Translations under genes and position numbers: made by a program
The notes under the pieces: model-generated
The model's database searches: none
The model's input: the letters and a program-made list of their open reading frames with translations, nothing else
What the model was told of the DNA's origin: nothing
IMG/VR virus record: IMGVR_UViG_2778261058_000013
DNA from: a virus
Lineage: Duplodnaviria; Heunggongvirae; Uroviricota; Caudoviricetes
Length of the DNA stretch: 5,473 bases
Reading direction: 5' to 3' (one strand)
In this document: positions 2,153 through 5,473 of the stretch, one piece after another
Layout: every line of letters starts with the position of its first letter
How positions within the stretch are numbered: position 1 is the first letter of the stretch

Positions 2153-2384
2153 AACCCCCCCCATTTTCACAATCAGCAATCAGGATGGCTTTAGCCTCAT
2201 TCAGTGCCATATCAGCACTAAATTGCATAACAGCCAGTGAGTGAGGAACGAAAGCCCCGGCATATTCTGTTTCGCTGGTGGCGTGCTTATGTGCCCTGTC
2301 CGCGATAACAGAAATATCAATCAGCGCGTGCATTAGCGTTTTGATGGCTTCGGCGGCTGCGTCCGGCGTGTTTTTATTGCACAT
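2145..2384 (-). CDS. Hypothetical protein (79 aa)
   Basis: ORF-track ORF; ATG 2384..2382 preceded by AGGGGG with a 6-nt spacer and overlapping the 3' end of the upstream 68-aa ORF; translation MCNKNTPDAAAEAIKTLMHALIDISVIADRAHKH...CENGGGYA, ending just after the G8 tract. Confidence 0.5.
   Translation of the reverse strand: MCNKNTPDAAAEAIKTLMHALIDISVIADRAHKHATSETEYAGAFVPHSLAVMQFSADMALNEAKAILIADCENGGGYA
2155..2162 (-). repeat. Homopolymeric G8 tract (C8 on plus strand) at the junction of two small ORFs
   Basis: Read directly: ataaCCCCCCCCatttt on the plus strand; on the coding strand it encodes the GGG near the C-terminus of the 79-aa ORF. Confidence 0.95.
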
Positions 2385-2580
2385 GGTGCACCCCCTGGCG
2401 AATACGGGCGGCGAATACCATCACGCAGCCAGCCGGTGATTGCTGACGGGCTTCCTGTTCGCTGGTGGCCTCAATGGTAATCATGCGCGGTTGTGCCGTG
2501 CTCAGAGCGATAAAACGCCAGATATATTTATTCAGGTTGTGCGAGTCCCGCCCTTGCGGGTGTGTGGTATGATTTAACAT
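2374..2580 (-). CDS. Hypothetical protein (68 aa), first gene of the minus-strand small-ORF operon
   Basis: Internal ATG at 2580..2578 of the long ORF-track frame 2374..3492, preceded by GAGGT with a 5-nt spacer; translation MLNHTTHPQGRDSHNLNKYIWRFIALSTAQPRMITIEATSEQEARQQSPAGCVMVFAARIRQGVHHVQ. The longer upstream extension is rejected. Confidence 0.45.
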   Translation of the reverse strand: MLNHTTHPQGRDSHNLNKYIWRFIALSTAQPRMITIEATSEQEARQQSPAGCVMVFAARIRQGVHHVQ

Positions 2581-2676
2581 AGCTACCTCGATACTGTTGC
2601 TATCGTTGGTGGTTAGAAGCCCCGTTACTGCTCCTACAGTGCGGGGTTTCGTCGTTTCTGTGCCTTGCATTAACAA

Positions 2677-2759
2677 GGTGTAAGACACAATGTAAAATAC
2701 AAGTGTCTTACACGTCAAGCCTTCAAAATAATTTTTTTTCGTGTATATTGTCTTACACC
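2677..2759. promoter_or_regulatory. Divergent promoter region with three copies of a 12-bp operator-like motif (core TGTCTTACAC)
   Basis: GGTGTAAGACAC at 2677..2688 (inverted) and GTGTCTTACACG at 2703..2714 form a palindrome with a 14-bp spacer; a third copy TTGTCTTACACC lies at 2748..2759. On the plus strand a putative -35 TTCAAA (2722..2727) and -10 TATATT (2744..2749) are 16 bp apart; on the minus strand a putative -35 TTGACG (2718..2713) is followed by TACATT. A T8 run sits at 2732..2739. Confidence 0.5.
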
Positions 2760-2779
2760 AACAACATAAGGAGTTAGAC

Positions 2780-2959
2780 ATGGCAACAGGTCCAAAGAAT
2801 GCAAAATCACAATCTGTAACTGCACGTATTGCCCATGAAATTATTGAAGGCATGGAAAACGTGAAAGAAGAAGGCGAAAGTACAGGGCAGTTTATAAGTG
2901 CAGCCATGCGCGGCGAGATCAAACGCCGCCAGCGTCGCAAGGCCAAAGAGCAGGAGTAA
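2780..2959 (+). CDS. Small basic protein (59 aa), possible ribbon-helix-helix-type DNA-binding regulator
   Basis: ATG at 2780 preceded by a consensus AAGGAG (2768..2773) with a 6-nt spacer; translation MATGPKNAKSQSVTARIAHEIIEGMENVKEEGESTGQFISAAMRGEIKRRQRRKAKEQE. The ORF-track start at GTG 2741 lies inside the promoter and is less likely. The RHH assignment is a guess from the N-terminal pattern. Confidence 0.6.
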   Translation: MATGPKNAKSQSVTARIAHEIIEGMENVKEEGESTGQFISAAMRGEIKRRQRRKAKEQE

Positions 2960-3016
2960 CCATCACTAGCGCCGTGGAGTGATGAACTGTGGCGCACAGG
3001 GTTACAGGTATATACG

Positions 3017-3214
3017 ATGACTGACAAATCATTAAAGAAATTATCCTCATCCAGGAAAAAACAACGCAAAAATGCGGTAAGCGAACAAGAACAGGAAAGA
3101 TTCGCACCTTGTTCGTTTGCTCTTGAGAAATTCCTTAAAGAGTACAGGCGCACAAAAATGGGATCGCATGCCTGGAAAACATCGCAGCATGGCGATACTA
3201 AAGAGCAGGAATAG
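3017..3214 (+). CDS. Hypothetical small basic protein (65 aa)
   Basis: ORF-track ORF; ATG 3017 with a weak AGGT 7 nt upstream; lysine/arginine-rich N-terminus; same strand as and immediately downstream of the 2780..2959 gene. Confidence 0.4.
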   Translation: MTDKSLKKLSSSRKKQRKNAVSEQEQERFAPCSFALEKFLKEYRRTKMGSHAWKTSQHGDTKEQE

Positions 3215-3317
3215 CCCACCAGCAAGCCAGCACACTGATCACATTGCCCACCAGCCGCAAATGTGGCATTGTTGGCTATGCTCATGCGTTGGGGATAACG
3301 TGTAGCTTGTGTCGAGG

Positions 3318-3346
3318 GGCCACCGTAGCGGGTGGCCTTTGTTTTG
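3318..3346 (+). terminator. Rho-independent terminator for the plus-strand small-gene pair
   Basis: Perfect 7-bp stem GGCCACC (3318..3324) / GGTGGCC (3331..3337) with 6-nt loop GTAGCG, followed by TTTGTTTTG. Confidence 0.5.
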
Positions 3347-3362
3347 CCTGTTATCCGGCAAT

Positions 3363-3392
3363 TGTGGCGCTTCGCCACACGGTTGATATAAT
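3363..3392 (+). promoter_or_regulatory. Candidate promoter: perfect palindrome next to a consensus -10 hexamer
   Basis: 7-bp inverted repeat TGTGGCG (3363..3369) / CGCCACA (3373..3379) with loop CTT, followed by consensus TATAAT at 3387..3392; weak -35 TTGTGG at 3362..3367 with a 19-bp spacer. Confidence 0.3.
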
Positions 3393-3441
3393 TCCCCTGC
3401 ACTGATCCATTTTTTTCGCAGCAGGTTAATTGTTCGCAAGG

Positions 3442-3466
3442 GCGCTCCGGCAACGGGGCGCTTTTT
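3442..3466 (+). terminator. Rho-independent terminator-like hairpin on the plus strand
   Basis: Stem GCGCTCC (3442..3448) / GGGGCGC (3455..3461), seven pairs including one G-U wobble in RNA, loop GGCAAC, followed by TTTTTGTT. The minus strand has no U-tract after the stem. Confidence 0.45.
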
Positions 3467-3496
3467 GTTATGTTCATCGCGTTACGCCTCACACCA

Positions 3497-3703
3497 TTAC
3501 GCAGCCGTTCCGCGCGCTTCTTCCTCGCGCTCTTTCAGCCAGGCCAGCACTTCATCTTCATACCAGCCAACACGGCGCAGACCGATTTTGAAGCCTTTCG
3601 GGAATTTTCCGGCGTTGATCATGTCCTGTAGCGAACTGTCTGCCTTGATGCGCAGAATATTTTTTACTTCCTGACGGGTAAGAATTTTTCTGATTACTTC
3701 CAT
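3497..3703 (-). CDS. alpA: AlpA/Vis-family phage transcriptional regulator (excisionase-like helix-turn-helix protein)
   Basis: ORF-track ORF; ATG 3703..3701 preceded by GAGGT with an 8-nt spacer; translation MEVIRKILTRQEVKNILRIKADSSLQDMINAGKFPKGFKIGLRRVGWYEDEVLAWLKEREEEARGTAA has the size (68 aa) and pattern of the AlpA family, and the gene sits in the expected position beside the integrase. Confidence 0.85.
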   Translation of the reverse strand: MEVIRKILTRQEVKNILRIKADSSLQDMINAGKFPKGFKIGLRRVGWYEDEVLAWLKEREEEARGTAA

Positions 3704-3767
3704 CGTGTTTTACCTCGTTAATACGGCGTATTCCGGTGATAAATACGGTAAAACAGGGCAGGGCGGG

Positions 3768-3810
3768 AAAAACAGTACTCACCGTTTTAAAACGGTACTC
3801 ACTGTTTTTT
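3768..3810. promoter_or_regulatory. Two tandem 20-bp near-palindromic repeats upstream of alpA (candidate regulator-binding sites)
   Basis: AAAACAGTACTCACCGTTTT (3769..3788) and AAAACGGTACTCACTGTTTT (3789..3808), 18/20 identical; each unit has partial dyad symmetry (AAAACNGT...ACNGTTTT). A possible degenerate third copy lies near 3741..3760. Confidence 0.4.
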
Positions 3811-3835
3811 ATCTCATTGATTACGCTTTCTTTTT

Positions 3836-3868
3836 GCAAAAAAATAGCGACCGCAAGGGGCCGCTATT
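3836..3868 (-). terminator. Rho-independent terminator after the 80-aa ORF and integrase transcription unit
   Basis: Stem AATAGCG (3843..3849) / CGCTATT (3862..3868) with a GC-rich interior; on the minus strand the stem is followed by a U7 tract (A-run 3838..3844 on plus); begins 5 nt past the stop at 3873. Confidence 0.55.
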
Positions 3869-3872
3869 GTGA

Positions 3873-4115
3873 TTACCGTTTCCACTTCTTAGGTCGCCCA
3901 CCACATTTAAGGCTGGTGGGCCTCAGCACCTTGTCGATGCTTTCAGCCAGATTTTTCGATGCGCCACGCGAGCGTAAAAAACTGACTACCTCGTGTTTTG
4001 TGGGGGCTGTTGATTTGTCTTCCGGATCGTATGTTGACCAGAATTCACGATTTGCCATTAACGCCAGTTGCAGCCCTTCGCCGCAAGCAGGGGATACCTT
4101 TTCATTGAAAAACAC
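3873..4115 (-). CDS. Hypothetical small protein (80 aa) with a basic GRPKKWKR C-terminus, between the integrase and alpA
   Basis: ORF-track ORF with a GTG start at 4115..4113 preceded by a consensus AAGGAG (4129..4124) and an 8-nt spacer; an alternative internal ATG gives MANREFWSTYDPEDK. Translation ends ...LKCGGRPKKWKR. Confidence 0.5.
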   Translation of the reverse strand: MFFNEKVSPACGEGLQLALMANREFWSTYDPEDKSTAPTKHEVVSFLRSRGASKNLAESIDKVLRPTSLKCGGRPKKWKR

Positions 4116-4171
4116 CTGGATAGCTCCTTGAATTTCATGATTTGGGTGACTCCTCTCTGTATTGGGTGGGT

Positions 4172-4210
4172 TGTGGCGATTATACGATGGTTTAGCATGG
4201 TTTGCATCGC
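4172..4210 (-). promoter_or_regulatory. Candidate sigma70 promoter for the 80-aa ORF
   Basis: Consensus TATAAT on the minus strand (plus 4184..4179) with a weak -35 ATGCAA 17 bp upstream; lies in the 116-bp gap between the integrase stop and the ORF's ribosome-binding site. Confidence 0.3.
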
Positions 4211-4231
4211 TTTTACTGGTTTTTTGTACAG

Positions 4232-5473
4232 TTACACGGCACGGATACCCCTTTTACCACTGGCTATGGTCACTCCGGTAGCTGCGGCCTCTACAAATTC
4301 CCCCCACCAGCGCATAAGCACCACGCGCTTTTCCAGGTAGTTACTTCTGTTATATGCCCGCCTTACCTCGTTCGTGTCCACGTGTGCGAGTGCGGCCTCG
4401 ATTACGTCCGGCTCGAATCCTTCCTCGTTCGCTGCTGTACTGAATATGGCGCGTAATCCGTGAGACACCAGCACACCAGCGTATCCCATCCGGCGCAATG
4501 CAGCGTTAGCGGTCTGGCTGCTCATTGGCAGCATTGGATTTTTAAGGCTGGGAAAAACATGTTCCCTGTGTGCGCTGATTGGCTTCATGGTTTCCAGTAC
4601 AGCCATAGCCTGACCGCAAAGGGGGATCACGTGGTCACGGCGCATCTTCATGCGTCCGGCTGGAATCGTCCATGTTTCGGCATCGAGATCTATTTCTTCC
4701 CAGCGTGCGGCGGCTGCTTCGGCTGGGCGTGCTACGGTCAGCAGTTGCCACTCAATCAGCAATCTGGTTTGCCGTTCTATGCTGGCGACCGATAAATCGT
4801 GCATTAGCTGCGGTAGCTGTTCCGGTCGGATGGTTGGCATGTGCTTTTTGGTGGGTGAGGGGAATGCCTTGCGGACGTTCGCGGCGGTGTTGATGTCAAT
4901 CAGCCCACTGTTGGCAGCAAAATCCATCACTTCATTGATGCGTTGTAAAACGCGTTTCAGGGTTTCCAGGTTGCCGCGTGCTTTAATGGGGGTGAGTATC
5001 TCAACAAAGCGGCGAGCTGTGAGGGTATCTATTGGCGTGTTTCCGATGTACGGGAATACGTATTTTTCCAGGGATCGCCAGATATCCTTAATCGTGTTGT
5101 AAGCCAGATTCTGGCCTTTTTTCATCTCGTACCAGTCCGAGGCAACTTTTTCGAACGTGTTGCCCTTTTTCCGACTCTCTGCTTCACGTTTCCGGCGTTC
5201 GTGGTCCTGTGGGTCAACTCCCTTCGCTATGAGTGACCTGTATTCATTCCGTCGTTCTCTGGCATCGGACAGGGAAACATCATTCAGCGATCCGAGGCTG
5301 ATGATAGTCCGTTTTTTATCTGCCGGGCGGTAGTACGTAAAACGCCAGATTTTTGATCCGGAGGGTTTCACCAGAAGAAATAATCCTCCACCATCCTGCA
5401 GGGTGTATTCCTTTTCCCCTGGTCGTGCGTTTTTGATCTCCGTAATGGTTAGTGGGGTGGTTTTTCGTGCCAT
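4232..5473 (-). CDS. int: Site-specific tyrosine recombinase, P4-type phage integrase (413 aa, complete)
   Basis: ORF-track ORF; ATG at the window edge (5473..5471). The N-terminus MARKTTPLTITEIKNARPGEKEYTLQDGGGLFLLVKPSGSKIWRFTYY is typical of the arm-binding domain of P4-like integrases; the C-terminal domain has the HxLR motif (VSHGLRAIF) and a catalytic-Tyr context (RRAYNRSNYLEKR). Confidence 0.95.
   Translation of the reverse strand: MARKTTPLTITEIKNARPGEKEYTLQDGGGLFLLVKPSGSKIWRFTYYRPADKKRTIISLGSLNDVSLSDARERRNEYRSLIAKGVDPQDHERRKREAESRKKGNTFEKVASDWYEMKKGQNLAYNTIKDIWRSLEKYVFPYIGNTPIDTLTARRFVEILTPIKARGNLETLKRVLQRINEVMDFAANSGLIDINTAANVRKAFPSPTKKHMPTIRPEQLPQLMHDLSVASIERQTRLLIEWQLLTVARPAEAAAARWEEIDLDAETWTIPAGRMKMRRDHVIPLCGQAMAVLETMKPISAHREHVFPSLKNPMLPMSSQTANAALRRMGYAGVLVSHGLRAIFSTAANEEGFEPDVIEAALAHVDTNEVRRAYNRSNYLEKRVVLMRWWGEFVEAAATGVTIASGKRGIRAV

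Follow-up and report, generated by a model that had tools for sequence, protein, structure and literature searches.

A candidate cis-antisense small RNA unit opposite an eta-like frame in a P4-like satellite island of Escherichia coli

The stretch of DNA analysed here (5,473 nt, hereafter the window) carries on its plus strand, just downstream of a small operon that converges on the activator gene alpA, a promoter and a terminator whose sequence elements are real and clearly non-random. On the minus strand the same positions belong to a long stop-free frame that begins immediately after alpA. From these elements we infer a small RNA that would be transcribed from the unit, would pair in vivo with the minus-strand RNA from codon 3 of this eta-like frame, and would block its translation, upon which Rho would stop read-through from alpA; we put the probability of this reading at roughly 0.45.

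A promoter-terminator unit on the plus strand

The elements of the unit and its immediate surroundings are:

3315..3347, plus strand: intrinsic terminator T1, located before the predicted small RNA promoter and closing the ylcI-orf65 operon
3363..3379, no strand: palindrome TGTGGCG-ctt-CGCCACA, covering roughly -36 to -20 in the predicted promoter
3384..3392, plus strand: extended -10 promoter element TGATATAAT, made up of TG (3384-3385) and TATAAT (3387-3392)
3399..3470, plus strand: predicted small RNA of about 70 nt, with the start inferred 7 nt after the -10 and the 3' end placed in the U-tract
3417..3441, plus strand: core CGCAGCAGGTTAATTGTTCGCAAGG, which together with T2 is the only part common to all three promoter classes described below
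3438..3470, plus strand: intrinsic terminator T2 (stem 3438-3465, loop GCAA, U-tract 3462-3469)

The preliminary description of this DNA had reported a perfect 7-bp palindrome in front of a TATAAT hexamer, and both were found where they had been placed; the palindrome arms (3363-3369 and 3373-3379) are 100% complementary around a 3-nt loop, and the hexamer occupies 3387-3392. The TG at 3384-3385, overlooked in that description, completes a perfect extended -10 element, i.e., 3384-3392 reads TGnTATAAT as in extended -10 promoters of sigma-70. TGNTATAAT has its sole occurrence in the window here (0.14 expected; at least one occurrence in 27 of 200 shuffles). At the -35 position (3364-3369, GTGGCG) only three of the six bases match the consensus, and the site is for this reason absent from the list returned by a consensus promoter scan. 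As an extended -10 renders the -35 match largely dispensable in sigma-70 promoters, the weak -35, which had been raised as a reservation and is indeed weak, matters little for this promoter.

Since five perfect 7-bp inverted repeats occur in 2550-3900, the palindrome alone is unexceptional. Among relatives its left arm and the flanking GGCAAT are nearly invariant while the right arm varies, and the sequence is thus not maintained as a palindrome. The 8-mer TTGTGGCG of the left arm recurs within 4171-4184, in the gap that separates the stop codon of int from the small ORF upstream of alpA, and there abuts the only other TATAAT of the window (4184-4179, minus strand); its presence at both TATAAT sites could reflect a site for a shared regulator.

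On the plus strand, the best terminator-like site follows the extended -10 at a distance of 46 nt. This site, T2, has a stem of 12 pairs, 7 of them G-C, followed by TTTTTGTT, i.e., the G+C-rich hairpin and U-tract on the transcribed strand that characterize an intrinsic terminator, and it scores highest among the seven terminator-like sites found in 2500-4300 (1.9 +/- 1.4 in shuffles). A terminator hairpin with a U-tract had been expected near 3442..3466, and T2 answers to it. The converse suggestion, that the hairpin might be the 3' end of the minus-strand alpA transcript, is contradicted by the U-tract and the G·U pairs, which exist on the plus strand only; a minus-strand terminator was not found for alpA. 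Together with T1, T2 encloses the promoter between two plus-strand terminators, downstream of the convergent ylcI-orf65 operon.

Because the two types of hairpin are shifted against each other by one base in an ungapped alignment, T2 was assessed by folding each variant rather than by counting covariation in single columns. All 24 T2 variants fold on the plus strand, with energies of -13.6 to -20.6 kcal/mol, and their minus-strand folds are weaker by about 8 kcal/mol. Compensatory double changes (GCGC/GCGC to GCGG/CCGC, and CCGG/CGGG to CAGG/CTGG) were observed, and other single changes survive only as G·U pairs, which correspond to A·C on the opposite strand. T1 variants are also compensatory, with a smaller asymmetry between plus and minus strands that is absent in some of them.

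The predicted RNA (3399-3470) would comprise a U-rich, mostly unpaired 5' part of 38 nt and then the terminator hairpin. It folds to -23.9 kcal/mol (z = -2.43, equalled by 3 of 200 shuffles), and its complement folds to -12.6 kcal/mol (z = +0.38), no better than shuffles. No plus-strand ORF fits between promoter and terminator, in agreement with the earlier view that no protein is encoded there. Judged by sequence only, this is a self-contained, non-coding plus-strand unit of about 70 nt, as had been proposed, and it has the promoter and terminator of its own that a cis-encoded antisense RNA would need.

An Rfam scan of the window at E <= 10 returned nothing relevant and no family for the unit, and an isrD match at 3312-3343 was merely the T1 hairpin. 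At the same threshold, the models for C4/P4 CI (RF01695) and isrK/seqA (RF01394) have no match in the window; both do detect P4 and a sister island (L001). The int-alpA RNA (RF02996) likewise gave no match in the window; a match to it was seen in a class B island (L007, 4657-4724, minus strand), between integrase and alpA. BLAST of the module containing the unit against 50,697 phage records yielded no match, and the Pas sRNAs and Esr41, which come from lambdoid prophages, are unrelated to the candidate. When the unpaired 5' part was compared with both strands of the 11-kb island for targets in trans, the best value was -30 kcal/mol, as compared to -31 to -43 kcal/mol for 30 shuffled sRNAs, and no site in trans therefore surpassed the controls. 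The only outstanding partner of the predicted RNA within the island is the cis-antisense site.

The island and its minus-strand eta-like frame

The window is a satellite of the type of phage-inducible chromosomal islands (PICIs) and P4, inserted at tRNA-Pro. Positions 2527-5473 are 99% identical to E. coli NZ_CP054662, where the matching island is inserted beside tRNA-Pro, near yejM. Its minus-strand genes run in the order integrase, small ORF, alpA, Icd/Kil-like, several small ORFs, DUF4222 gene and primase, with SSB, ProQ/FinO, PerC and terS genes after the primase in the sister island; this layout is of the Gram-negative PICI/P4-like satellite type (PMC6092414, PMC10111431). The genes and frames considered here are:

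4232-5473, minus strand: integrase
3497-3703, minus strand: alpA, the activator gene of the island (PF05930, E = 4.5e-8; 68 aa, PF05930/HTH_17)
2374..3492, minus strand: eta-like stop-free frame of 372 codons, with SD GAGG at 3489-3486 and ATG 3477-3475 as its likely start
2580-2377, minus strand: Icd/Kil-like protein, the C-terminal 68 aa of the eta-like frame
2780-2959, plus strand: YlcI/YnfO-family gene, ylcI (NF041551, E = 1.2e-18)
3017-3214, plus strand: orf65 (phrog_21027, E = 1.7e-43)
3234..3314, plus strand: conserved 3' UTR of the ylcI-orf65 transcript, the left part of a 236-bp module

The convergent ylcI-orf65 operon (2780..3214, plus strand) sits between alpA and icd, and beyond T2 the plus strand holds only the antisense of alpA, orf62 and int, with no co-oriented operon across attP. 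Upstream of alpA, two tandem 20-nt repeats (AAAACAGTACTCACCGTTTT, 90% identical, 3769-3808) may be sites of AlpA autoregulation, and a minus-strand intrinsic terminator (3843-3868) follows the small ORF between int and alpA. The region between ylcI and icd (2670-2760) is a divergent promoter/operator region, with an 11-bp inverted repeat (GTGTAAGACAC/GTGTCTTACAC) at 2678-2713, a third copy of this repeat (TGTCTTACAC) at 2749-2758, and promoter-like sites on both strands (2670-2698 and 2722-2749, plus; 2718-2689, minus).

The DNA of the unit is not plain intergenic spacer, as its minus strand is part of the 372-codon eta-like open frame, overlooked in the preliminary description, whose ATG at 3477 stands beside the 3' end of the predicted RNA and 20 nt past the alpA stop codon. 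Stop-free from just after alpA to the stop of the Kil/Icd-like part, this frame has no internal stops, as compared to 23 and 17 in the other two minus-strand frames, and orf65 and ylcI, together with the divergent promoter region, lie antisense within it; in relation to ylcI and orf65, the third codon positions of both strands are opposite each other. The non-coding stretches 3215-3476 and 2581-2779 were stop-free in only 2.2% and 0.9% of shuffles, respectively. P4 has the same frame after vis (8812-8168). There it is the eta frame, whose translation is coupled to that of the alpA homologue and, by preventing termination, lets transcription reach the genes downstream (PMC10111431).

Among the 173 related loci in which both frame ends are visible, 159 have a corresponding frame that reaches 250 codons or more, with a maximum of 819, and the majority of these frames end in the Icd motif. 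Indels between the promoter classes are multiples of three. Variable sites are distributed over codon positions 1, 2 and 3 as 15, 23 and 15, indicating that the frame is kept open while its peptide is not conserved. In some genomes PGAP has annotated "BRO-N domain" or "icd-like" pseudogenes across the module (e.g., L003, 3770-4481, and L005, 2405-2638, both on the minus strand); these look like side effects of the long frame and of upstream Bro-N remnants rather than decayed genes.

The unit had been described as antisense to the minus-strand RNA leaving alpA, and it does occupy the strand opposite the frame after alpA. The predicted RNA is fully complementary to nucleotides +8 to +79 of this frame, i.e., from codon 3 on, and the SD (GAGG) and the ATG at 3477 lie immediately beyond its 3' end.

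Distribution and variation among related islands

Sequence matching 3340-3480 was found in 444 of 5,426 complete E. coli genomes. The unit is part of a 236-bp block (3234-3469) that is 81-95% identical across islands with different integrases, alpA alleles and insertion sites, and that always has the ylcI operon on one side and alpA or a Bro/Ant gene on the other. This block, consisting of the 3' UTR and the small RNA unit, recombines as one unit. Homology ends exactly at the end of the T2 U-tract, with at least five different sequences beyond it, and the recombination junctions coincide with this point. A small hairpin (GCCGCAAATGTGGC) lies in the 3' UTR (3234-3314, plus strand). Matches to a degenerate core pattern were found in E. 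ruysiae, the sole species representative beyond E. coli, and in 117 IMG/VR and 66 metagenome contigs. The homologue set comprised 188 copies in 103 unique contexts, most of them gathered by the core pattern, so that conservation of the core itself is biased.

Three classes of sequence were distinguished upstream of the core, with distances between the -10 and the T2 stem of 46 (class A), 50 (class B) and 58 nt (class C). TGATATAAT is identical in all 73 unique contexts of class A, a class defined by this very motif, and as the module is 81-95% identical among relatives the invariance of these nine bases is only mildly informative. Two close relatives, grouped with class C, have the same site decayed to TATAAC; no linked decay of the eta-like frame was seen in them, which is uninformative. 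Class B follows an antA/antB gene and has TTCACT-17-TATAAT (10 of 12 matches), and class C, which is without T1, has TTGCCC-17-TATCAT, with T2 serving there also as the operon terminator. In both of these classes the -10 belongs to the only promoter-like site that the consensus scan returned in the region scanned. The first 17 nt of the 3' UTR are kept in class C and the remainder is replaced there. One variant without T1 begins its homology at the -35 region.

The position of the frame start relative to the unit also differs among types. In class B the ATG of the frame lies about 20 nt beyond T2, and in several other island types the eta-like frame begins 28-70 codons upstream of the paired region, so that blocked initiation cannot account for the action in all types.

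Islands were also chosen by their Icd protein alone; core and T2 were present in 38 and absent from 42 of these 80 islands, and the unit is therefore not essential. Among islands without the module, 25 of 26 still carry a terminator on the antisense strand, no more than about 150 nt from where the eta-like frame starts, which points to a general need for a terminator at the frame start. The promoter, unlike this terminator, is confined to some island lineages.

A possible antisense role and its alternatives

According to the reading that we favor, TGATATAAT would start a plus-strand RNA near 3399 that T2 would end near 3468; the product, untranslated and about 70 nt long, would act as cis-antisense partner of the minus-strand transcript leaving alpA. 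Translation of the eta-like frame would shield this transcript from Rho and thus allow transcription from the alpA promoter to reach the kil and replication genes, as in P4. Pairing of the small RNA would either block ribosome loading or trigger cleavage by RNase III, the eta-like frame would stay untranslated, and Rho would then terminate leaky alpA read-through before icd and the replication genes, keeping the island quiet. Strong, helper-induced transcription of alpA, running head-on through the promoter of the small RNA, would override the block. In the window, pairing at +8 to +79 would be near enough to the start codon for the loading of ribosomes to be hindered, and for types with a start 28-70 codons upstream cleavage of the duplex would be the likelier effect.

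The main rival of a cis-antisense RNA, somewhat unlikely in our estimate, is that T1 and T2 are tandem back-stop terminators that halt ylcI-orf65 transcription before alpA and that TGATATAAT is fortuitous, being silent or giving a functionless RNA. T2 is the sole plus-strand operon terminator in class C, nearly all module-less islands (25 of 26) keep an antisense-strand terminator near the frame start, 42 of the 80 Icd-anchored islands do without the module, and the high overall identity makes conservation of the -10 weak evidence, all of which a purely terminating function would accommodate. It would leave to chance, however, that a perfect extended -10 (0.14 expected in the whole window) is found on the correct strand with 46 nt between it and T2, that a -10 (TATAAT or TATCAT) is kept at 50-58 nt in the diverged classes B and C, and that one variant lacking T1 retains everything from the -35 position onward. 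The class C arrangement, where core and T2 are simply the 3' end of the operon mRNA, and the joint conservation of the 3' UTR from 3234 with the unit in one 236-bp block would also suit a product of the operon's 3' end, i.e., read-through of T1, a stop at T2 and processing, which if active would be an sRNA derived from a 3' UTR. We consider this improbable, as T1 is well formed and maintained by compensatory change, and as the extended -10 would be left without a role.

Conservation might instead act on the minus strand alone, through a real protein (a long form of the Bro/Icd family) or a minus-strand cis element, with any plus-strand RNA irrelevant. The open frame in 159 of 173 loci, the between-class indels in multiples of three and the PGAP pseudogene calls across the module in some genomes fit such an origin, to which we nevertheless assign little probability: variable sites (15/23/15) are without an excess at third positions, the peptide changes freely over T2 variants in which the plus-strand hairpin is kept, and the minus-strand fold is no better than shuffles. 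Matches to Pfam, PHROG and NCBIfam are confined to the C-terminal Icd part, and with the distribution of variable sites this led us to reject a real minus-strand domain across the unit. Very unlikely, finally, is a cassette for antitermination of the Q/AlpA type, in which a regulator bound to the palindrome between -35 and -10 would let polymerase pass T2. A site between -35 and -10, a short leader and a terminator do resemble the P. aeruginosa alpB promoter and lambda PR' (PMC7969949), but the right arm of the palindrome is not conserved, T2 is followed by no co-oriented genes, only by antisense alpA, orf62 and int and by none across attP, and the neighbouring genes include none for an antiterminator with a Q fold. 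The AlpA of P. aeruginosa, which is larger and has a Q-like fold, bears no relation to the 68-aa AlpA (PF05930) of the island, and AlpA as a Q-like antiterminator was dismissed as a coincidence of names with nothing co-oriented downstream.

Gram-negative PICIs have no known repressor (PMC6092414). A broader proposal, which we regard as doubtful, is that these islands are silenced partly by a convergent module (ylcI-orf65 and the antisense sRNA) lying antisense inside the long eta-like frame, which would be translated solely to exclude Rho from the RNA; the sRNA would gate ribosome entry and so determine, via Rho, whether transcription from alpA gets as far as the kil and replication genes, and in this lineage it would supplement or replace the P4-type CI RNA that the window lacks. 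If true, a constitutive antisense RNA at the entry of the read-through frame would give the quiescence of Gram-negative phage-inducible chromosomal islands a concrete negative control, and would provide, beside P4 and P1, a second instance in which termination depends on translation in this way, here driven from the opposite strand. As the unit is common, short and easily mutated, the idea is directly testable; if the RNA is inert, the region is still a clean case of tandem terminators that insulate convergent operons within an overlapping frame.

Several known systems offer partial parallels. Lambda OOP is a 77-nt cis-antisense RNA made from the promoter pO and ended by its own intrinsic terminator; its overlap with cII is at the 3' end of that gene, and it acts by way of cleavage by RNase III. 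The candidate would likewise be short, have a promoter and an intrinsic terminator to itself and run against the main early transcript, between a regulatory gene and the replication genes; unlike OOP, it would end 27 nt before alpA is reached and overlie the beginning of the following frame, and the two have no sequence relation. The sar RNA of P22 (68-69 nt, immI region) is transcribed from a promoter that faces the ant transcript and stops at a terminator; by pairing with the start of the downstream ORF, over the ribosome-binding site of ant, it keeps that ORF from being translated, the convergent promoters forming a switch. The candidate shares with sar the small size, antisense orientation, opposing promoter and terminator, and the class B unit directly follows an antA/antB gene; it differs in pairing at codon 3 or later, in its target, a read-through frame rather than an antirepressor, and in having no homology to sar.

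The c4 RNA of P1/P7 and the CI RNA of P4 prevent translation of icd or kil and thereby cause Rho termination before the downstream genes; both are processed from the target strand and exert their effect in trans, at sites close by. The candidate would be an element of the same kind in that a small RNA blocks translation and leads to Rho termination, but it lies on the opposite strand about 1 kb upstream, has its own promoter and terminator, and matches no Rfam family. A link to the P4 immunity RNA, as had been suggested, thus amounts to an analogy: C4 (P4 CI-like) and isrK (seqA-like) are found in the near-identical sister island (L001, 8688-8873, minus strand, upstream of icd and inside the eta-like frame), on the other strand and at a distance of about 1 kb, and are absent from the window and from five other islands, P4 and L001 having both. 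The window appears to have lost, or never to have had, a P4-type immunity RNA. At 2418-2527 the window has about 109 nt where the sister island has about 440 nt. Like P4 eta/kil, the frame of the window is long, follows vis/alpA directly, has its own SD and ends in Kil/Icd; unlike P4 eta, it is about twice as long and is antisense through two plus-strand genes and a promoter-terminator unit, none of which are present in P4.

FinP of the F plasmid is a cis-antisense RNA that acts with FinO against the start of a gene gating an activator-driven operon. The candidate would resemble FinP as a cis-antisense RNA of about 70-80 nt, with a ProQ/FinO-family RNA-chaperone gene present in the sister island (L001, 3721-4257, minus strand). 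Unlike in the FinP/FinO system, co-occurrence is only partial, ProQ/FinO homologues being found in 41 of the 95 module-bearing loci with enough flanking sequence; where present, such a protein may partner the antisense RNA.
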